IMG/VR virus record: IMGVR_UViG_3300009506_000019
Coordinates: 32,001 to 96,000 of that record
DNA length: 64,000 nt
Source: a virus
Direction: 5' to 3' (one strand)
Part shown: piece by piece, positions 3,378 through 62,321 of the stretch
Layout of the letters: every line of letters starts with the position of its first letter
Numbering within the stretch: the first letter of the stretch is position 1
Program-made: the position numbers and the translations under genes
Notes under the pieces: generated by a model
Told to the model about the DNA's origin: nothing
Database searches by the model: none
What the model saw: only the letters and a program-made list of their open reading frames with translations

Positions 3378-5396
3378 CTACGCAGCCAGTTGATTGGCTT
3401 CATAAATTTCCAGCGTGGAAATTTCATTCTCCATGTGTGCTGTCCATCTCTCATCAAACGCCATCGTGTTCAATAGCCTGGTGTTGTGAGAGATAATCAA
3501 ACATGTTGGCACCAGCTCTACGATAGACTCAAAAGCTTCGACCAACTTGTCAGCATTAACATCGTCCAGATTCTCATCCAATTCGTCCACTGCCGTGATG
3601 TTTACACCCAAACCACGTTCAATAGACAGTTGAATCATAGCAAGGAATGTGGCCACAACTATAATCTTCTTCTGACCACCAGAATACATCTCAATTGGAA
3701 CACCAGTCTTCTTTTCTGTGTCCACGATGAAATTGAGACCAGACACTATACCTTTACCTCTAGTGGTGCTTCTAGCTGTGACAAAACGAGCAAACAACCC
3801 AGGCCCCCACAATTCATACAATCTATCGGCCAACAGCTGATTCAGCCTATCTATGGCAGCCTCATATTCTTGTATCCGAATCTTTTTCAAGTTGCGTTCT
3901 GTCCATTTGAGGTGCGATATCTCATTGGTCATAGACACAGCTTGAGTTTCAAGATGTTGAATCCCAGCTTCGATCTGCTCTACTTCATTAATCTTGCTTT
4001 GTAGGCTAGCCAAATGCATCTTGGCAATGGAGATATTGGTTGGTGCCATCTTGATTTCGTTGTTCAGATAGCTGAGTTTTTCATTCAGATGCTCAATTGC
4101 AGAACATATGTCCTGGTATTCTTTCTTTTTGGCGAGTTGTTTTTGTTTGGATTCTTCCAAATGGCGCAGCTCTTCTTCCATCTTCAATTTCGCTGCGGCT
4201 TTAGCTTCCCCTACAGCCTTCTCATGTGCAGCAACCAAACGACCATGATCTTCATATAGAGCATCGACCTTCAATCCTCCATCAGAGATGAGGTCTGTTA
4301 GGCGCTCTATTTCTTTCTTGAGATGCTCCTGGTCAACCACTTGTCCACAGTTACTACATACTCCCTCACCAACAGTCTGGTAATGATTTACTGTAGTAAG
4401 ATTATTGCGATTCTCCGCCTGAAGGGTCAGAATTTGATTGTGAATAGCACCAATCTTTTCTGGCTCCGGTGGTGGTTCAAAATTTTCATATCTTTCCCTG
4501 CTGTGCCGTTCTTCTGCAACCAGAATTTGTAATTCCTGCTCAACATCATCTATAGTAGATTGCTTCATTTGAAGCTCAGATATTTGTTGCTGAGTTGTGG
4601 CTGCAGCCTGGCATAGGCCCTTGTAATTCTCTTCTACCACTTGAACAGACCTAGCTGCCTCCTGTATGTCCTGTTCAGTAGGTAAGATAATATGATTCAA
4701 CGAGTTCTTCCTACCATTGATTTCACTATTCAAATTAGCAAGCTCTGTATCTTTGTTGGTATATGCTGCCTTGGCTATCTCCGCAGCACTGGTCCAAATA
4801 GAGACATCAGCTATCGCCTGAATGATTTTCTCTCGAGCACCACTTGTGCCCAACACCAATGCCGATTCTGCACTCTGCCCCAGACACACATAGGCAGAGA
4901 ACTGGTCATACGTCATACCGAAGATGTTATCTATAATGAACTGCTTCGCATCATCCATACTTTTGTTATCACGCGAAGCGGTGGGCCTCATATCAACCCA
5001 CTGACTCCCATCCCACATCTCAACAAAGATGTCGTCACCTGTGTATGTACCACCCAACGATAAATGTTGACTCGGACCATCCACACCTTGAGGATAAGTA
5101 GTACCTCTCCATTTGCGAATATTCATGATACGCCACGTCTTGCCTTCACGATCTACACACCACAAGACGCCAAACATACCGTTATCCCAATCGACATGGT
5201 GATTAACCACATTCAATCCGGATTTGGTAGTATCATTCTTACTGAATGCAATCTCTTTGATAGAATTGAGAATGGAAGATTTTCCACTCCCATTGCGTCC
5301 AGAAATCAAAACTCGACCTTTCTTGTCGAGCTGAACAACTGGCATCCAACCAAATGAAAACATGCCAGTAGGATTTACCGCTAAGATAGTCAGCAT
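3378..5396 (-). CDS. sbcC: SbcC/Rad50 (gp46-like) SMC ATPase
   Basis: Walker A GRNGSGKS, Q-loop CLGQ, coiled coil with zinc hook CSNCG, signature YSGGQ, Walker B/D-loop VDELDENLD, ISH; start moved to MLTIL. Confidence 0.92.
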   Translation of the reverse strand: MLTILAVNPTGMFSFGWMPVVQLDKKGRVLISGRNGSGKSSILNSIKEIAFSKNDTTKSGLNVVNHHVDWDNGMFGVLWCVDREGKTWRIMNIRKWRGTTYPQGVDGPSQHLSLGGTYTGDDIFVEMWDGSQWVDMRPTASRDNKSMDDAKQFIIDNIFGMTYDQFSAYVCLGQSAESALVLGTSGAREKIIQAIADVSIWTSAAEIAKAAYTNKDTELANLNSEINGRKNSLNHIILPTEQDIQEAARSVQVVEENYKGLCQAAATTQQQISELQMKQSTIDDVEQELQILVAEERHSRERYENFEPPPEPEKIGAIHNQILTLQAENRNNLTTVNHYQTVGEGVCSNCGQVVDQEHLKKEIERLTDLISDGGLKVDALYEDHGRLVAAHEKAVGEAKAAAKLKMEEELRHLEESKQKQLAKKKEYQDICSAIEHLNEKLSYLNNEIKMAPTNISIAKMHLASLQSKINEVEQIEAGIQHLETQAVSMTNEISHLKWTERNLKKIRIQEYEAAIDRLNQLLADRLYELWGPGLFARFVTARSTTRGKGIVSGLNFIVDTEKKTGVPIEMYSGGQKKIIVVATFLAMIQLSIERGLGVNITAVDELDENLDDVNADKLVEAFESIVELVPTCLIISHNTRLLNTMAFDERWTAHMENEISTLEIYEANQLAA

Positions 5397-5498: not shown

Positions 5499-5696
5499 CT
5501 AGAACTCCACAACGTGCAGCATCTCGGCATCCAGCACCACGAGATCCTCGCTGTCGGACTTCATCTTGAGATTTTCCTTCAACTTCTTCTTCGCCTTTGA
5601 GATGGCGATGTTGATGTTGGCTGCCACACCGTACATCGTCACTTTCTCATTCTTGTCCTTCGGATTCTCAATCACCACTTTCCACATGTACTTCAT
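5499..5696 (-). CDS. Hypothetical protein
   Basis: 65 aa ORF, 4-nt overlap with upstream gene. Confidence 0.6.
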   Translation of the reverse strand: MKYMWKVVIENPKDKNEKVTMYGVAANINIAISKAKKKLKENLKMKSDSEDLVVLDAEMLHVVEF

Positions 5697-5923
5697 TTGA
5701 ATCTCCCGTTGTTTTGCCGGATGCCCTTCTTTTGGGCGAACCAGGTAGGAACAGCCACTATTTTCCTGTCAAAAGACAGCGTTATTTTTGCAATCTTGGG
5801 AACCCACACATGCCCAAAATCTGTATTGAATAGTCTGGCGTCCGCTGTCTCTTTGATGATTCCATAGTGATACACATAGGTCACTTCGGAATTGGAAAAC
5901 TCTGACACACCAAAACTACTCAT
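5693..5923 (-). CDS. Small beta-rich phage protein (ETxxA...WxPK...PxW type)
   Basis: KETADARL...VWVPK...VPTWFAQKKG; resembles 24939..25133. Confidence 0.6.
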   Translation of the reverse strand: MSSFGVSEFSNSEVTYVYHYGIIKETADARLFNTDFGHVWVPKIAKITLSFDRKIVAVPTWFAQKKGIRQNNGRFK

Positions 5924-6195
5924 AACAGATCACTCGGTTCGATGTTATTATTTATCATCAATCGGATAGCGTCTTTCACTATCTGACCAACGATCTCATC
6001 ACCAGGCCAATGAGTAACCAGTCTACTTTTTAGTCGAATCTCCTCAGGATCAACATAAGTTCGTTCGATCGTACCCAAATCAGACACTTCTGCACGGACA
6101 CGTTCATGTATGTCCGTGTGATAATTGTCACGTAATTGAGCAACAAAACTCTTTAGATTTTTGAGGTCTTTCCTCTCATCAAAAATGTCACTCAT
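5920..6195 (-). CDS. Hypothetical protein
   Basis: 91 aa ORF, coupled overlaps. Confidence 0.6.
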   Translation of the reverse strand: MSDIFDERKDLKNLKSFVAQLRDNYHTDIHERVRAEVSDLGTIERTYVDPEEIRLKSRLVTHWPGDEIVGQIVKDAIRLMINNNIEPSDLL

Positions 6196-57509: not shown

Positions 57510-58274
57510 CTAGGTGTCGGCAATCACAGTGTACGTCTTGATGAGCGTGCCCACGCCCGACAGTAAGCTGAGACCGCTGACATCGATGGTGACGGTGATG
57601 ATGTCACCGATCTCGTAGATCTTTGTGGCTCCCGCGTCGGTGTCCATCACGACATCTATGGTAAGGTAGCCAGCCTCGAACTGAGGAGTCCCAGCAGGGG
57701 TCGCCGGCTTCACACATGTCGGAGCACCCCCCGTCCCCGTTGCAATGGGTACATAGGCAGGGGTGACTGTGGGAACGAAGTTGGCCCAGCCGTGGAGCAA
57801 CCCTTCAGAGGTAACCAGCTTCACACCGACTTTTTTGATCAATTCCCCAGCCGCTGCTCCATTGAGATCACCAACCTCAATGTCTTCAGCCAGGGCTCCG
57901 GGGTAAATGTTCAGAGCCGCATCCCCTTCTGCCATTGCCCCAACCACCTTCTCCAAACTCCGAACTGCATTTTGGAGAGCGAGCATAGAAAGAGAAGACT
58001 GATCATTCGCTGACTCGAGAGAATTCGTTAAGGTGCTGGTAGCCGCATCAAATTTGTCTTTACCAGCGTCTTCGAATTCATCAGGGGTGTCTGGATCTTC
58101 CTCAACAGTATAGCTAATATGCCCAGCTTGCTGGAGCTTTACCAGCTCGTCCACAGCTTGTTCTGGAAGATCATCAAAAAATCGTTTACTCTTCTCACCA
58201 CTAGCAGGGACGGAGAGTCTCAAAGACTGAATTGAAACTTTGACGTTTCGAAGATTCTTAATAGTAAGAAGCAT
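57510..58274 (-). CDS. Hypothetical (likely virion decoration) protein
   Basis: SD GAGGAG, own promoter, beta-rich C-terminal domain. Confidence 0.6.
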   Translation of the reverse strand: MLLTIKNLRNVKVSIQSLRLSVPASGEKSKRFFDDLPEQAVDELVKLQQAGHISYTVEEDPDTPDEFEDAGKDKFDAATSTLTNSLESANDQSSLSMLALQNAVRSLEKVVGAMAEGDAALNIYPGALAEDIEVGDLNGAAAGELIKKVGVKLVTSEGLLHGWANFVPTVTPAYVPIATGTGGAPTCVKPATPAGTPQFEAGYLTIDVVMDTDAGATKIYEIGDIITVTIDVSGLSLLSGVGTLIKTYTVIADT

Positions 58275-58349
58275 TTGTCTCTCCTCGCGATAACATCGCA
58301 ATGATATATAATATTCTAATTAAAAGTGTCTTTAGAAATACTTAAAAAT

Positions 58350-58378
58350 ATTGTACGCGTGATCACAATAATATGCAA
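58350..58378 (-). promoter_or_regulatory. Sigma70-type promoter
   Basis: TTGCAT-17-TACAAT in AT-rich intergenic region. Confidence 0.65.
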
Positions 58379-58394
58379 TACATTAAAACGATTA

Positions 58395-58470
58395 TGGCGG
58401 GAGAGGAGGGACTCGAACCCTCATCAAACAGGTTAACGGCCTGTTGCTCAGCCAATTGAGCTACACTCCC
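58395..58470 (-). tRNA. tRNA-Asn(GTT)
   Basis: Cloverleaf, loop CCGTTAA, GTTCGA, CCA. Confidence 0.9.
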
Positions 58471-58474
58471 GCAT

Positions 58475-58549
58475 TGGTGGGGCGGAGTGGAATCGAACCA
58501 CTGCTCTCGGATTTTCAGTCCAAAGCTCTACCAACTGAGCTACCACCCC
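58475..58549 (-). tRNA. tRNA-Phe(GAA)
   Basis: Loop CTGAAAA, CCA. Confidence 0.92.
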
Positions 58550-58553
58550 ATGT

Positions 58554-58624
58554 GCAGAGCTGGTCAGCCACGCGCTACCCATCCCAGATTGTGCTGGGCC
58601 AAAGCCTTGTCCGCTGCGCTCTGC
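58554..58624 (-). ncRNA. tRNA-sized degenerate cloverleaf element
   Basis: 7-bp GCAGAGC/GCTCTGC, CCCAG/CTGGG arm with 6-nt loop, no TTC T-loop or CCA. Confidence 0.5.
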
Positions 58625-58638
58625 AACTCTTACTTGTT

Positions 58639-58715
58639 TGGTGGACCGGACGGGACTCGAACCCGTGACCTCCTGGGTGCAAACCAAGCGCTCTCCCAAC
58701 TGAGCTACGCGGCCC
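58639..58715 (-). tRNA. tRNA-Ala(TGC)
   Basis: Loop TTTGCAC, G3:U70, CCA. Confidence 0.92.
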
Positions 58716-58716
58716 A

Positions 58717-58792
58717 TGGAGCTGGTGAGAGGAATTGAACCTCCAACATCCGGTTTACAAGACCGGGGCTCTGCCAATTGAGCTACACCAGC
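58717..58792 (-). tRNA. tRNA-Thr(TGT)
   Basis: Loop CTTGTAA, CCA. Confidence 0.92.
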
Positions 58793-58810
58793 TCTTTGCC
58801 AGCGTTCAAT

Positions 58811-58885
58811 TGGCGGGCCTACTCCGACTCGAACGGAGATCTCCGGTTTTGGAGACCGGCATCCTACCAATTGAACGATAGACCC
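58811..58885 (-). tRNA. tRNA-Trp(CCA)
   Basis: Loop CTCCAAA, CCA. Confidence 0.92.
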
Positions 58886-58905
58886 TTGTTTCTTCACCAC
58901 CCGGC

Positions 58906-58980
58906 TGGTGGGCCGGGAGGGAATCGAACCCTCAACAAACGGGTTAAAAGCCCGCTGCGCTACCGTTGCGCCACCGGCCC
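58906..58980 (-). tRNA. tRNA-Lys(TTT)
   Basis: Loop CTTTTAA, CCA. Confidence 0.92.
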
Positions 58981-59014
58981 ACACCGCCGATGGTCTTCTC
59001 CTCAGCGAACCGGA

Positions 59015-59091
59015 TGGTCCGCCAGGGAGGACTCGAACCCCCGACACGCGGGGTAGAAACCCGCTGCTCTGTCCAACTGAGCTACTGACGG
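59015..59091 (-). tRNA. tRNA-Arg(TCT)
   Basis: Loop TTTCTAC, CCA. Confidence 0.92.
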
Positions 59092-59111
59092 ACAGATCCG
59101 ATATTCGCGAC

Positions 59112-59187
59112 TGGTAGGCGAGGGGAGAATCGAACTCACCAACCTGTCGCTTATAAGGCGACGGCTCTACCATTGAGCTACTCGCCA
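59112..59187 (-). tRNA. tRNA-Ile(TAT)
   Basis: GTCGC-CTTATAA-GCGAC, discriminator A, CCA. Confidence 0.88.
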
Positions 59188-59199
59188 TTTCTCTCGAGT

Positions 59200-59274
59200 T
59201 GGACCGCCAGGTCGGAATCGAACCGACGTGCGCCTGCTTGGAAGGCAGGGGACCAGCCACTAGCCCACTGGCGG
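59200..59274 (-). tRNA. tRNA-Gly(TCC)
   Basis: Loop CTTCCAA, U73, CCA. Confidence 0.88.
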
Positions 59275-59277
59275 TTT

Positions 59278-59353
59278 TGGTGCGCAGAGCAGGGCTCGAA
59301 CCTGCGACCCTCTGCTTGTAAGGCAGACGCTCTCCCAACTGAGCTACCCGCGC
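59278..59353 (-). tRNA. tRNA-Val(TAC)
   Basis: Loop CTTACAA, CCA. Confidence 0.92.
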
Positions 59354-59355
59354 AC

Positions 59356-59431
59356 TGGTCCAGGTGAGTGGAATTGAACCACTGACATCACGATTATCGG
59401 TCGTGTGCTCTCCCATCTGAGCTACACCTGG
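59356..59431 (-). tRNA. tRNA-Ile(GAT)
   Basis: Loop CCGATAA, CCA. Confidence 0.9.
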
Positions 59432-59443
59432 ACAATGAAAGGC

Positions 59444-59567
59444 GGGGCTGGGGCGTCGCGCTCTTTCCATGCATCGACCATTCGCACCCTCTGGCTTAGC
59501 GAGCCAGCGCACAGTTTCTGGGGTGTCAGCCCCATGGTCTACCCCACGCTCTGACAAGCGTTGCCCC
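59444..59567 (-). ncRNA. Multi-branched structured RNA between tRNAs
   Basis: Nested stems GGGGC/GCCCC, TGGGGT/GCCCCA, GACCAT/ATGGTC, GGGG/CCCC, TGGCT/AGCCA, CGCT/AGCG. Confidence 0.6.
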
Positions 59568-59574
59568 ATAATTT

Positions 59575-59649
59575 TGGTAGCGGGAGCGAGAATCGAACTC
59601 GCGACGGTCTGGTTATGAGCCAGATGTTCTACCACTGAACTATCCCGCA
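59575..59649 (-). tRNA. tRNA-Met(CAT), possibly initiator-like
   Basis: Loop CTCATAA, U1:U72 mismatch, CCA. Confidence 0.88.
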
Positions 59650-59660
59650 ACAAATGCAAG

Positions 59661-59736
59661 TGGAGGGCCAGGCAGGAGTCGAACCCGCGACACCTTGGTC
59701 CGTAGCCAAGTGCTCTGTCCACTGAGCTACTGGCCC
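59661..59736 (-). tRNA. tRNA-Arg(ACG)
   Basis: Loop CTACGGA, CCA. Confidence 0.92.
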
Positions 59737-59738
59737 TT

Positions 59739-59814
59739 TGGCGGTGCGTACGGGAATCGAACCCGTCGTTTCCTGAGTGACAGTCAGGCCGGTTCACCAG
59801 CTCCGTCACGCACC
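59739..59814 (-). tRNA. tRNA-Asp(GTC)
   Basis: Loop CTGTCAC, G73, CCA. Confidence 0.9.
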
Positions 59815-59980
59815 GAGACGTGACCCAACTGTCCTTCAGTAGGTTCTGACCGTTTTGTCGATACCACCGAAGGAGGTCAGTTAGGCCACGGTGGTATCTC
59901 GAAAATTCGCTTTAATACCGGCCCACATTGTCGTCGTTATGACGACTCTTCCGGTCCTTGCGACCGAATGTGTGCCGAGG
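59815..59980 (-). ncRNA. Structured leader RNA: three-way junction plus nested pseudoknot
   Basis: Stem 59919-59929/59967-59977 with two hairpins; 13-bp stem 59819-59831/59878-59890 crossed by GATACC/GGTATC. Confidence 0.6.
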
Positions 59981-59995
59981 GGTAACATCACGATC

Positions 59996-60004
59996 ATTAT
60001 AACA
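59996..60004 (-). promoter_or_regulatory. Extended -10 promoter for main tRNA array
   Basis: TGTTATAAT. Confidence 0.6.
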
Positions 60005-60028
60005 CAGCATGCTGTGCGTGTGAATTAT

Positions 60029-60115
60029 TAGTGCTGAGGGCGGGACTCGAACCCGCACGAGCAATTGCCCAGGAGATTTTAAGTCTCCAGTGTCTACCAA
60101 TTCCACCACCCCAGC
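60029..60115 (-). tRNA. tRNA-Leu(TAA)
   Basis: Loop CTTAAAA, long variable arm, ends CTA not CCA. Confidence 0.9.
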
Positions 60116-60116
60116 T

Positions 60117-60202
60117 TGGTGGGCAAGGAGGGAATCGAACCCTCAATCCCGAAGGCACTGGTATTTGAAGCCAGCGTGTATACCAAGTTCCACCACTTGC
60201 CC
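60117..60202 (-). tRNA. tRNA-Leu(CAA)
   Basis: Loop TTCAAAT, C31:A39 mismatch, long variable arm, CCA. Confidence 0.85.
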
Positions 60203-60280
60203 ATGAGCTACGCGCCCTGGAACCCTGTCGTAGCTCGATGACGCCCTCCTACGTGCTTGACGCCACACCACTTTCTCGAT

Positions 60281-60366
60281 TGGTGGGTGCGGAGGGAGTC
60301 GAACCCTCAATCCCGAAGGCACCAGATCCTAAATCTGGCGTGTATCCCAAGTTCCACCACGCACCC
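60281..60366 (-). tRNA. tRNA-Leu(TAG)
   Basis: Loop TTTAGGA, near-duplicate body of Leu(CAA), CCA. Confidence 0.9.
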
Positions 60367-60367
60367 T

Positions 60368-60453
60368 TGGTACGGGAGGCGGGACTCGAACCCGCACGGA
60401 CAAGCCACATGCTCCTCGGGCATGCGCGTCTACCATGATTCCGCCACTCCCGT
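60368..60453 (-). tRNA. tRNA-Leu(GAG)
   Basis: Loop CCGAGGA, long variable arm, CCA. Confidence 0.88.
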
Positions 60454-60538
60454 AGCTTACTTTTTACAAGGATAAGAGTCGCAGGAGGAAACCTGCGACA
60501 GCGATCGAGTTGTGCGTTTTATTCGCCATCTCACTCCA

Positions 60539-60567
60539 AGTATAACATACTGGTGACCGCACATCAA
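60539..60567 (-). promoter_or_regulatory. Sigma70-type promoter for Leu tRNA block
   Basis: TTGATG-17-TATACT with TG extension. Confidence 0.55.
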
Positions 60568-60586
60568 TCATTACCTATATCCGGAC

Positions 60587-60760
60587 ATGGACGAACAGCA
60601 ACAAAAAGATGCATTAGAGTTGTTGAAGGAAGCCACGGCAGCTCACCCAGACATTGTTTATGGAAGACCCAACACAGTAATTTCTCACACAGACATGGTG
60701 AATTGGTTGTATCAGTGGATTCCTCGAGTTCAAGGCTTCCTTGATGAAGTTGATGGATAA
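60587..60760 (+). CDS. 57-aa hypothetical protein (below ORF-track cutoff)
   Basis: MDEQQQKDALELLKEATAAHPDIVYGRPNTVISHTDMVNWLYQWIPRVQGFLDEVDG*. Confidence 0.55.
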   Translation: MDEQQQKDALELLKEATAAHPDIVYGRPNTVISHTDMVNWLYQWIPRVQGFLDEVDG

Positions 60761-60797
60761 ATTGACAACCACCACGTGATTATGATCTAATTGGAAG

Positions 60798-60895
60798 TGA
60801 TAGGAGAACGTCATGGATACCGTGATGAAAAACACAGGCTTCGCTGTTCTTGCCAACGCCCTTGTTGGTCAGTCGCAGCCGTGTTACTCCTATCA
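60798..60895 (+). ncRNA. Structured leader RNA / SD-sequestered 36-aa micro-ORF (60813..60923)
   Basis: TGATAGGAG/CTCCTATCA, TCATGG/CCGTGA, GCCAAC/GTTGGT stems; TTGACA at 60762. Confidence 0.45.
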
Positions 60896-60939
60896 TCATT
60901 ATTCACAACCACACAGTAGTTAAGGCACGCTCACATAGA

Positions 60940-61029
60940 GGAGCGGTAGCCTAGCCTGGTAAGGCGGCGGGTTGCTAACCCGTTGGTGTGCTTGCACACT
61001 CGAGGGTTCGAATCCCTCCCGCTCCGCCA
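60940..61029 (+). tRNA. tRNA-Ser(GCT)
   Basis: Loop TTGCTAA, long variable arm, G73, CCA. Confidence 0.92.
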
Positions 61030-61047
61030 TTTTCTTGTGAGGTTGTG

Positions 61048-61230
61048 ATGAAGGATGAATTCAAGAAAGCAGTAATCATGACAGGTGACGTACCGCACTG
61101 TTCGTGTCGGTATTGCAAAAACCTGAATCGCACCAGAATCGACAGGAAAAAGCAAAGAAAACAAAAGAGAAAAAGGAGGGCAAGACAGATTTTGAAGAAA
61201 TATTTACGTACGGGAGTAGCGCAGTGGTAG
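61048..61230 (+). CDS. Small very basic protein with CxCxxC
   Basis: GAGG SD; HCSCRYC; RKKQRKQKRKRRAR; stop lies inside tRNA-Pro. Confidence 0.5.
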   Translation: MKDEFKKAVIMTGDVPHCSCRYCKNLNRTRIDRKKQRKQKRKRRARQILKKYLRTGVAQW

Positions 61231-61284
61231 CGCACCGGTTTTGGGAGCCGGGGGTCGTGAGTTCAACCCTCACCTCCCGTACCA
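61210..61284 (+). tRNA. tRNA-Pro(TGG)
   Basis: Loop TTTGGGA, CCA. Confidence 0.9.
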
Positions 61285-61287
61285 AAC

Positions 61288-61375
61288 GGATGGGTAGCCT
61301 AATTGGTAAGGCACCAGTCTTGAAAACTGGCGATGCATTCGTGCACTGCGGGTTCGAGTCCTGCCCCATCCGCCA
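61288..61375 (+). tRNA. tRNA-Ser(TGA)
   Basis: Loop CTTGAAA, long variable arm, CCA. Confidence 0.92.
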
Positions 61376-61384
61376 GCTTAAATT

Positions 61385-61455
61385 GCACCCGGCCGCAGGC
61401 GAAAGCCGAATTGGACCGAGCGAAAGCCGAAAGTCCGAGGATGACGGCCGGGTGC
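61385..61455 (+). ncRNA. GAAA-tetraloop structured RNA between tRNAs
   Basis: Perfect 11-bp GCACCCGGCCG/CGGCCGGGTGC enclosing GGC-GAAA-GCC and GGAC..GC-GAAA-GC..GTCC. Confidence 0.65.
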
Positions 61456-61460
61456 TTTAT

Positions 61461-61536
61461 GGCGGTTGTAGCTCAATGGAAGAGCATCCGGTTGTGGCCC
61501 GGAAGACGAGGAGTTCAATTCTCCCCAATCGCCCCA
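61461..61536 (+). tRNA. tRNA-His(GTG)
   Basis: G-1:C73, loop TTGTGGC, CCA. Confidence 0.92.
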
Positions 61537-61539
61537 AAA

Positions 61540-61614
61540 GGCCAGATAGCCAAGTGGCAAGGCATGGAGCTGCAACCTCCATCATCGTCGGTTCGATTCC
61601 GACTCTGGCCTCCA
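61540..61614 (+). tRNA. tRNA-Cys(GCA)
   Basis: Loop CTGCAAC, U73, CCA. Confidence 0.92.
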
Positions 61615-61615
61615 C

Positions 61616-61689
61616 AGAGGAGTCGCTCAATGGCAGGGCAACGGGTTTTGGCCCCGTTTATCTGGGTTCGATTCCCAGCTCCTCTTCCA
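61616..61689 (+). tRNA. tRNA-Gln(TTG)
   Basis: Loop TTTTGGC, CCA. Confidence 0.9.
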
Positions 61690-61694
61690 TCCAT

Positions 61695-61782
61695 GGGTGT
61701 GTAGACCGCTATGGACACGGGCTTGGCTGTAGACCAAGCGTGCTTTGGCACCGTGAAGGTTCGATTCCTTCCACACCCACCA
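61695..61782 (+). tRNA. tRNA-Tyr(GTA)
   Basis: Loop CTGTAGA, long variable arm, CCA. Confidence 0.88.
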
Positions 61783-62244
61783 TCAATCATCTGAAGCTTC
61801 AGCCCAGGTGAACTGAACACCCCAACTACCACTCGGATTATCAAACCAGTGGAGTGCCTCGGTGTGGTCGAGCCCCATCCTCATCTTGCCGTACGAAAAA
61901 CCATCTTCTCCATGGCCTGCGGTGTACTTCCCTCCACGAGTATTCAACTCCACATCACCGTTCTCCGGTCCATGTTTGGAAACTGTCGTCAAGCACCAAC
62001 CACCGTCTTCGTCTTTGTACATATCGACGTAGTAGTAGTCTCCTGGCGTATACTCCTTGCCTCGATTGTCGAGTGCCGGACCTCGGAAATTCAACGTGGC
62101 ATCGCCTGACGGAGTGAACTTCCAGAACACCGCATTCTCAGGATTCTTGCCATTCTGAAGGACTGGACCCAACTCGACGATGACTGAACGGTCCCACTTC
62201 TTGGTGACTGACAAACAACGGAATTTTGCGCGTACTTGTCTCAT
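61783..62244 (-). CDS. Hypothetical protein with internally duplicated domain
   Basis: SD GGAGG; VRAKF...ENAVFWKFTPSG...GDYYYVD followed by a diverged second copy. Confidence 0.7.
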   Translation of the reverse strand: MRQVRAKFRCLSVTKKWDRSVIVELGPVLQNGKNPENAVFWKFTPSGDATLNFRGPALDNRGKEYTPGDYYYVDMYKDEDGGWCLTTVSKHGPENGDVELNTRGGKYTAGHGEDGFSYGKMRMGLDHTEALHWFDNPSGSWGVQFTWAEASDD

Positions 62245-62321
62245 CTCTTCCTCCAAAAACGGTTTGAGTTGAGACCGCGCTGTTGACCCGGATCGCGGAC
62301 GTGCCGGTTACTATTATTCTA

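Follow-up and report, generated by a model that had tools for sequence, protein, structure and literature searches.

The DNA considered here is a window of 64,000 nucleotides (nt), corresponding to bases 32001-96000 of the 166,061-bp (base pair) IMG/VR virus record IMGVR_UViG_3300009506_000019, an uncultured phage whose genome is complete according to CheckV. The window carries 25 transfer RNA (tRNA) genes, on which ARAGORN and Rfam are in agreement, organized as two divergent arrays. The minus-strand array (58395..60453; 18 genes by ARAGORN and Rfam RF00005) comprises two operons, designated A (58395-59814; 14 tRNAs from Asp to Asn, covering 12 amino acids) and B (60031-60453; four tRNA-Leu genes). 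Operon C (60940..61782, plus strand) displays seven tRNAs, namely Ser-gct, Pro, Ser-tga, His, Cys, Gln and Tyr, again recognized by both ARAGORN and Rfam. Seventeen of the spacers between tRNAs measure 1-34 nt and seven measure 78-486 nt. The region is probably best understood as three promoter-driven tRNA operons in which the long spacers are of four natures: conserved structured RNAs, codon-matched leaders, elements without relatives, and gaps occupied by small reading frames.

The long spacers are referred to as G1 (58550-58638, 89 nt), G2 (59432-59574, 143 nt), G3 (59815-60030, 216 nt), G4 (60203-60280, 78 nt), G5 (60454-60939, 486 nt), G6 (61030-61209, 180 nt) and G7 (61376-61461, 86 nt). 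An earlier examination of the same DNA, designated here the sequence-only reading, had described spacers of mostly 1-35 nt, in agreement with these measurements, interrupted at five slots (58554, 59444, 59815, 60798 and 61385) by structured RNAs with clean closing stems, G-U pairs favoring the tRNA strand and GNRA loops. These slots correspond to G1, G2, G3, a hairpin within G5 and G7, and G4 and G6 were overlooked. The closing stems are present in all five. Fold stability was expressed as a z-score relative to dinucleotide shuffles, and only three of the flagged slots fold better than their shuffles: 59815 (59815-60030, z -5.9 on the minus and -2.4 on the plus strand), 60798 (60790-60900, -5.3 on the plus and -2.0 on the minus strand) and 61385 (61376-61461, -4.6 on the plus and -5.1 on the minus strand). 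The folds of G1 (58550-58638, minus strand, z -1.0), G2 (59432-59574, minus strand, z -0.7) and G4 are indistinguishable from those of shuffled sequences. These z-scores reveal a preference for the tRNA strand at two of the flagged slots only, 59815 and 60798. Similarly, GNRA loops are found at 61385, where three GAAA loops occur, and are not prominent in the other slots.

In composition, G1, G2, G4 and G7 (57-59% G+C) resemble tRNAs (60%) and differ from the whole phage genome (48%), from G5 (44%) and from G6 (39%). At gathering thresholds, tRNA (RF00005) is the sole Rfam 15 family represented, and the non-tRNA elements match no family of this release. Relaxing the search to E<=10 over positions 58000-62300 added nothing but sub-threshold noise, all of it overlapping tRNAs. 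Relaxed ARAGORN searches over the long spacers revealed no hidden or degenerate tRNA, transfer-messenger RNA (tmRNA) or intron-containing tRNA, and no repeats of the gap elements resembling miniature inverted-repeat transposable elements were found elsewhere in the 166-kb genome.

G1 is the most extensively documented of these elements. It fills the spacer between tRNA-Ala and tRNA-Phe (58550..58627, minus strand) and is composed of a P1 clamp (GCAGAGC/GCUCUGC), a P2 helix (CAGC/GCUG) and a P3 hairpin (CCCAG/CUGGG), joined in the window copy by the conserved junctions GGACAAGGCUUUGGC and AUGGGUAGCGCGUGG. The clamp begins 13 nt after the CCA encoded by tRNA-Ala and ends 3 nt before the 5' end of tRNA-Phe. 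Comparison by blastn located G1 at 77% identity in about 40 Streptomyces phages of the BE cluster, inside tRNA arrays, on the tRNA strand and in unannotated DNA; the use of the copy from Streptomyces phage Starbow as query extended the set to 103 Streptomyces phages. The family consensus consists of the junctions GGACAAGGCUUNGGC and RUGGGNNGCGNGUGG placed around a variable P3, the helices being free in sequence. A scan of IMG/VR with 15 specified bases of the first junction returned at least 119 contigs; among the matches listed, the second junction lies at the right distance in 95 of 119. Among these 95 contigs, the G1 loci span 25% to 69% G+C, a tRNA is present on the same strand within 150 nt in 56 and any tRNA is present within 1.5 kb in 68. 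The window copy displays both a P1 of 7-11 bp of free sequence followed by P2 of the form CARC/GYUG, as in the rest of the family, and the two junction blocks flanking P3.

The proposed pairing is strongly supported by covariation. In an alignment of 19 sequences, two-sided changes affect all 10 pairs of P1, P2 switches from A-U to G-C in 6 of the 19, and 91% of the cells are paired, shuffled sequences reaching 60% and slid partners 28-44%. P3 covaries as well (CCCAG/CUGGG, CAUU/AAUG, CCAC/GUGG, CCGG/CCGG) and accepts inserts of up to about 150 nt. A covariance model of the family (R2) assigns 75.9 bits to the window copy, which belongs to its training set, and 28-67 bits to held-out members; exactly one copy is detected in the genome of the window. 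Rfam contains no match to G1, including when 111-nt slices of other members were submitted (noise only), and literature searches by motif sequence found no paper containing the G1 motif sequences. As judged by conservation and covariation, G1 therefore belongs to an extensive RNA family, so far uncatalogued, that is present in hundreds of phages and has no Rfam entry.

Two neighborhoods of G1 homologues deserve separate mention. One IMG/VR phage contig that bears G1 also carries, among its tRNA genes, a cyclic di-AMP riboswitch aptamer (L097:3647-3780, minus strand; RF00379, 68 bits). In Starbow (L081, 80000-104000), the tRNA region with the G1 homologue encodes a Ro-like RNA-binding protein, a tmRNA, an RNA ligase and a polynucleotide kinase, and is thus an RNA-repair and RNA-surveillance neighborhood. 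The G1 homologue of Starbow occupies about 92446-92518 of MH576964, and its Ro-like protein is gp129.

The presence of Ro-like proteins in some of these phages raises the question of whether G1 is a Y-RNA-like partner of a Ro60-type protein (TROVE or DUF2828), produced by the tRNA operon and serving as adaptor or decoy for an RNA-surveillance particle. In the G1-bearing BE-cluster phages, the tRNA region that contains G1 does include a gene for a Ro-like protein, and TROVE or DUF2828 was found in 8 of 14 near-complete G1-bearing IMG/VR records, a suggestive raw count. The 3' strand UUGACCA also resembles the UUGAC(U/C)A of the Ro-binding stems of Y RNAs. However, both domains are absent from the remaining 6 of these 14 records, and neither is encoded in the complete genome of the window. 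The Rfam YrlA family (RF02553) does not match G1. The ACCA of the resembling strand is a bulge located outside any UGGUC/GACCA helix and is missing in about half of the members, and the handle formed by clamp and P2 occurs once per genome, only with the G1 core and never with other cargo. This explanation is accordingly considered unlikely.

A second conserved motif was detected in G4, between tRNA-Leu(tag) and tRNA-Leu(caa) (60203..60277, minus strand), the spacer that ranks next to G1 in conservation. It consists of two hairpins, the second with an invariant 16-nt loop, ACAGGGUUCCAGGGCG, and its conserved part begins about 10 nt after the encoded CCA end of tRNA-Leu(tag). The closest relative with an array, IMGVR_UViG_3300009506_000003 (L007), possesses a Leu array that aligns end to end with that of the window, the 78-nt G4 spacer being conserved like the tRNAs and displaying two compensatory pairs. 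A scan of metagenome contigs with the G4 loop yielded five more true copies (L044, L046/L059, L050, L061, L053), on six loci of which L059 duplicates L046, for a total of seven members. Three of the seven are located in tRNA arrays; the other four are intergenic and precede, by 8-25 nt, phage reading frames that are unrelated. An alignment of six sequences defines hairpin 1 as GGUGGCGUC...GGCGYC with a loop containing GCAC and AGGAG, and hairpin 2 as a free stem closed by the invariant loop; the window copy displays all these features. Hairpin 2 shows double changes at five pairs, with 92% of cells paired compared with 31-53% for slid partners. The corresponding covariance model (R1) assigns 88.1 bits to the window copy, also part of the training set. 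The loop gave chance matches only in 185,579 prokaryote genomes, blastn found no match to G4 in INPHARED, and Rfam returned noise only, including for 111-nt slices of other members. By these compensatory changes, G4 is identified as a second conserved and uncatalogued RNA motif with seven members. The two hairpins of one member (L053:1906-2024), which is flanked by tRNA-Thr(ggt) and tRNA-Gly(tcc) in a tRNA array, are separated by about 47 inserted nt.

In both G1 and G4 the stems covary freely and the loops or junctions are near-invariant, across phages whose hosts range from 25% to 69% G+C, which suggests that these loops serve to bind some conserved partner or ligand in the cell. Since both elements fill inter-tRNA spacers exactly, on the tRNA strand, tRNA processing would release them: ribonuclease P (RNase P) and tRNA 3' processing would free RNAs of about 75 nt. 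As a tentative extension, which we regard as possible rather than probable, G1 may constitute a new functional RNA class co-expressed with tRNAs by many unrelated phages, its purine-rich junctions being either a catalytic core or a binding site for a universal component of translation or RNA surveillance (e.g. a Ro60-type ring), with G4 as a second such RNA.

The slots 59815 and 60798, which fold most strongly, are of a different kind. Their sequence features identify them as 5' leaders of tRNA operons, cis-regulatory rather than free-standing small RNAs, because both are promoter-proximal and contain translated-looking short reading frames. For operon A, the promoter scan located TTCACA-17-TATAAT, with an upstream TG and 11/12 consensus matches, at the upstream end of G3 (59996..60024, minus strand). 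A reading frame of 35 amino acids (aa) follows (59881..59988, minus strand), its ATG being 7 nt past the -10 box. The last 27 residues, VARTGRVVITTTMWAGIKANFRDTTVA, include all 12 amino acids of the operon A tRNAs and no others; this run is the second-longest of its kind in the genome and the sole one covering 12/12 amino acids. A long, strand-specific hairpin (59815..59901, minus strand) spans the stop codon of the frame and ends at the 5' end of tRNA-Asp.

The leader of operon C displays the same organization on the plus strand. A candidate promoter, TTGACA-18-TCTAAT (60762..60791; alternative -10 box TATGAT at 60781-60786), was read by eye and was not reported by the consensus promoter scan. 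The leader frame (60813..60923, 36 aa) starts behind AGGAG, and its last 17 residues, QSQPCYSYHHYSQPHSS, are drawn exclusively from the six amino acids of the operon C tRNAs (S, P, H, C, Q and Y), each of which occurs. This is the longest run of its kind in all six frames of the 166-kb genome, the runner-up reaching 11. The associated hairpin (60797..60896) has a fold that is significant on the plus strand only, and in its outer stem, of 10 bp, the Shine-Dalgarno region GUGAUAGGAG is base-paired to CUCCUAUCAU, located within the regulatory codons. In addition, the tail of leader C, UCACAACCACACA (60903-60915), was seen by eye to be complementary at 12 of 13 positions to UGUGAGGUUGUGA (61036-61048), which forms the ribosome-binding site and start of a 60-aa Lys/Arg-rich frame. 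Such a pairing would span tRNA-Ser(gct), and translation of the leader might therefore be coupled to that of the 60-aa frame.

Operon B is preceded by TTGATG-17-TATACT (60539..60567, minus strand; promoter scan), upstream of the four tRNA-Leu genes, and by a Leu-rich leader region (60464-60567). The frame (60464..60529, minus strand), MANKTHNSIAVAGFLLRLLSL, has its ATG 9 nt past the -10 box, and Leu accounts for 5 of its 7 final codons (CTC, CTG, CTC, TTA, TTG), which lie across a terminator-like hairpin. The latter was identified by the terminator scan (60468..60499, minus strand) as GTCGCAGG-TTTCCT-CCTGCGAC, with the stem-loop at 60499-60478 and the tail TCTTATCCTT, and overlaps the Leu codons. 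In leaders A and C, large hairpins cover the regulatory codons without a U tract. A short frame with a start signal, located behind a promoter (a candidate one at operon C) and enriched in codons matching the downstream tRNAs, is found at all three operons. As an aside, Glu is the single amino acid missing from the C-terminal regulatory segments of all three leaders, and the 26th tRNA of the genome, the sole one outside the cluster, is a tRNA-Glu(ttc) located beyond the window (G000:C1:25834-25909).

Similar leaders were found in relatives and in unrelated phages. In L007, a promoter and a leader with eight Leu precede the four tRNA-Leu genes, and a promoter, GAGGAGG and a Ser/Pro/Cys leader ending in CPSSSSPSPSPSPSSP precede Ser-Pro-Pro. 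An insert of 634 nt follows, and beyond it a second promoter and MVSRFYQHCHQYPAQA are located directly before His-Cys-Gln-Gln-Tyr. The leaders of L007 match each part of the split operon, and leader content therefore follows operon content even when the latter is divided. Pairing between regulatory codons and the Shine-Dalgarno sequence of the Ser/Pro leader is seen in L007 as well as in the window, by means of different sequences in each. A second relative, L003, has a homologous leader whose start lies 7 nt past a -10 box TATGGT, before Arg-Met-Val-Gly-Ile-Arg-Lys-Thr-Asn. Among unrelated contigs, L148 (700-870) displays TATAAT, 7 nt, MINSNTYYEEESNL and a GC hairpin with seven U, followed by tRNAs Glu-Tyr-Glu, and both L114 (1200-1450) and L160 carry a Leu/Arg-rich leader and a strong terminator, followed by Leu-Arg-Leu. 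The L114 frame, MRTTLLHTLLLDRQGLLRRLMP, is leaderless and lies behind a promoter, and in L148 and L114 alike the terminator is intrinsic and the tRNAs correspond exactly to the amino acids of the leader. A first, crude screen of leader matches in other phage arrays detected no overall enrichment; in a refined screen covering 162 tRNA groups, 12% of the groups outscored no fewer than 96% of the swapped amino-acid sets, compared with about 4% expected, an approximately three-fold excess.

It was also considered that the codon-matched frames could be products of chance or composition, such as C-rich Rho-loading sites, rather than translated sensors. The tail of leader C is indeed C-rich and G-poor, and a Leu-rich frame alone is not rare. 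The bias is nevertheless absent from the other two frames of the same leader DNA, which give T, I, L, F and N, and the runs are genome-wide extremes located exactly upstream of the matching operons. The match moreover tracks the split of the operon in L007, the frames start 6-9 nt past -10 boxes or behind AGGAG, and the same design recurs in unrelated phages, so that a fortuitous origin appears extremely improbable.

The logic of the leaders, understood as codon-matched sensors, would probably be ribosome-mediated attenuation and can be summarized as follows. Each operon appears to open with a promoter, a short frame bearing codons of the downstream tRNAs at its C-terminus and hairpins over those codons. 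When the operon's own tRNAs are scarce, ribosomes would stall on the leader codons and block an inhibitory hairpin or a Rho entry site, and more tRNA would be transcribed. In leader B, stalling at hungry codons would prevent formation of the terminator hairpin; in leaders A and C, it would prevent another inhibitory event, e.g. the loading of Rho on the C-rich tail, or a processing step. No paper on leader-peptide control of tRNA genes was found in the literature.

Two of the flagged slots have no detectable relatives. G2 (59432..59574, minus strand) is an orphan GC-rich spacer of 143 nt between tRNA-Met and tRNA-Ile(gat), with several hairpins and a G+C fraction of 0.59. G7 (61385..61455, plus strand) is an orphan, very stable three-way junction between tRNA-Ser(tga) and tRNA-His, with an 11-bp GC-rich perfect closing stem and three GAAA loops; the 12-mer GCGAAAGCCGAA is present twice as a direct repeat (61397-61433), each copy giving one GAAA loop. 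No homologue of either was found by blastn in INPHARED, in 1.7 Mb of phage loci, or in L007 or L003. Scans of IMG/VR with the exact cores GAAAGTCCGAGGATGA for G7 and GGGTGCGAATGGTCGA for G2 returned chance matches only, a weak negative because the cores were guessed. Covariation, which the sequence-only reading itself had set as a criterion and which is very strong for G1, therefore cannot be shown for 59444 (G2) and 61385 (G7). At the position of G7, L007 has an inserted gene with a second promoter and leader instead. As G7 carries no U tract, it would be at most a weak terminator or a processing site. Most likely, G2 and G7 would be elements of processing or partial termination peculiar to this lineage, or else small RNAs that evolve fast.

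Alternatively, G2, G7 and possibly other spacers may be non-functional remnants, such as decayed tRNAs or scars of mobile insertions (e.g. homing-endonuclease genes), acting as mere spacers. This is compatible with the lack of homologues anywhere searched, with the direct junction of Val to Met in L003 without a G2-like insert, with the 634-nt insert containing a reading frame and a promoter at the G7 position of L007, and with the fold of G2, no better than shuffles. It is, however, difficult to reconcile with a G+C fraction of 0.59 in both elements, which is tRNA-like and unlike the 48% of the genome or the other spacers, and with the 11-bp perfect stem of G7 (z -4.6). Relaxed tRNA searches found no tRNA remnant, and there are no repeats elsewhere in the genome. 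This alternative is thus judged rather unlikely.

The remaining long gaps appear to hold two small frames, neither with a family match. The first, of 57 aa (60587..60760, plus strand), is located between the divergent promoters; the second is the 60-aa Lys/Arg-rich frame already mentioned (61048..61230, plus strand), which occupies G6, between tRNA-Ser(gct) and tRNA-Pro, and runs into tRNA-Pro. A tblastn comparison of the small frames with a set of phage loci that included L003 and L007 detected no homologues. The plus-strand array of L007 is itself split by two small protein frames, at 5120-5350 between Pro(cgg) and Pro(ggg) and at 5590-5957 between Ser(tga) and His, which are not homologous to the 57-aa or 60-aa frames.

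The sequence-only reading had interpreted the array as a polycistronic source of several small RNAs. In its strongest form, this implies that each of the long spacers, five or more in number, is a small RNA acting independently in trans (as decoy, ribozyme or antitoxin mimic) and derived from a common precursor. Every spacer is indeed located between tRNA genes on the tRNA strand, three slots fold far better than shuffles, and G1 and G4 are truly conserved structured RNAs; in the case of 58554 (G1), a non-tRNA structured RNA on the tRNA strand that covaries overwhelmingly, this part of the proposal stands. The release of 59815 and 60798 as small RNAs is not borne out, as these slots lie at operon 5' ends with promoters, start signals and codon-matched frames, and G2 and G7 are without relatives. 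A ribozyme among the small RNAs received no support either: no ribozyme family matched even at E<=10, G1 is strictly nested, and the motifs begin 10-13 nt past tRNAs that encode CCA, unlike theta ribozymes, which cleave no more than 5 nt from the tRNA 3' end and only 4.5% of whose associated tRNAs encode CCA (Kienbeck et al. 2024, PMC10879173). A uniform set of trans-acting RNAs is thus very unlikely. The earlier reader picked up genuine anomalies but lumped together elements of four kinds; its five slots are of mixed nature and comprise one strongly supported new RNA family, two regulatory leaders and two orphan elements.

Several observations weigh against the interpretation as three operons with four kinds of long spacer. 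G1 and G2 fold no better than shuffles, and both are missing from the shorter L003 array. G2 and G7 have no homologues even in L007, the closest relative. A terminator-like hairpin with a U-rich tail was reported by the terminator scan at leader B only, and none at A or C. Taken by itself, the Leu-rich frame of leader B carries little weight, since the six frames of the genome contain about 60 comparable Leu-dense windows. Finally, the discrete transcripts and processing sites invoked above are inferred only.

The genomic surroundings offer few landmarks. PHROGs matches were obtained only for replication and nucleotide-metabolism genes, the phage proteins being distant from those of known phages, and an INPHARED search of the region produced no phage match except scattered tRNA similarity. 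A 157-aa protein (61783-62256, minus strand) adjoins tRNA-Tyr; it has 32 metagenome homologues that are 39-80% identical and belongs to no Pfam family. It is also located beside tRNA arrays in L003 and L007, and not in other contigs. In L007 the flanking protein shows 69% identity. Most of the contigs with homologues lack tRNA arrays or available DNA, leaving L003 and L007 as the only informative ones, and synteny scans with either the flanking 157-aa or the 263-aa protein singly found nothing.

Phage tRNA clusters are usually annotated as tRNAs and junk spacers. If G1 and G4 did represent new functional RNAs of the kind tentatively proposed above, the cluster, with its codon-sensing leaders, would be a regulated RNA toolkit, more than a supplement to codon usage. 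The two most strongly folded "RNAs" are leaders that would couple the transcription of the tRNAs to their own availability, a form of control that bears on the response of phages to the depletion of host tRNAs by defence nucleases. The occurrence of G1 in cultured Streptomyces phages makes it open to deletion, probing and pull-down experiments, and separating the classes of element avoids over-counting novel small RNAs.

Several known systems are comparable in part. The tRNA cluster of phage T4 contains the stable RNAs species 1 and species 2 (RNA C and RNA D), which are co-transcribed with the tRNAs and freed by tRNA-processing enzymes. The likeness, that of small structured RNAs on the tRNA strand of a phage tRNA cluster, is restricted to position and processing logic; G1, by contrast, is a defined motif shared by phages whose hosts differ widely, and G4 is not confined to tRNA arrays, being present also a short distance ahead of reading frames. 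The Y RNAs (YrlA, RF02553) that accompany Ro60/Rsr are likewise closed by a stem, measure about 75-110 nt and are often found near phage tRNA genes, and some G1 phages encode Ro60-like proteins. However, RF02553 matches none of G1, G2, G4 and G7, G1 is devoid of a tRNA-like domain, and the phage of the window is devoid of a Ro60-like gene.

Theta ribozymes, minimal ribozymes of the hepatitis delta virus (HDV) type, are also non-tRNA elements on the tRNA strand of tRNA arrays in Caudoviricetes, and a role in the maturation of tRNAs has been proposed for them (PMC10879173). They adopt a nested double pseudoknot (P1, P1.1, P2, P3, P4), in which J4/2 begins with a catalytic C, unlike the strictly nested P1-P2-P3 of G1. 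A theta or HDV-like identity was ruled out for G1 and G4 because of their position and the encoded CCA, and for G1 also because of its topology. No HDV-type Rfam match was obtained at E<=10 over 58000-62300, a negative that for G2 and G7 includes no descriptor search.

The closest parallel to the leaders is provided by the attenuators of amino-acid operons (trpL, hisL, leuL and pheL, and the multivalent thrL and ilv), with which they share the succession of promoter, cognate-codon frame, overlapping hairpin and regulated genes, extended in leader B to a terminator-like hairpin with a U-rich tail. They differ in that leaders A and C have no intrinsic terminator and that several seem to be leaderless, their ATG following the -10 box at a distance of 6-9 nt. 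Unlike the classical attenuators, the leaders of the window precede tRNA genes, and a single leader samples 12 amino acids. Because the regulated genes are themselves tRNAs, the sensor would read the operon's own products.

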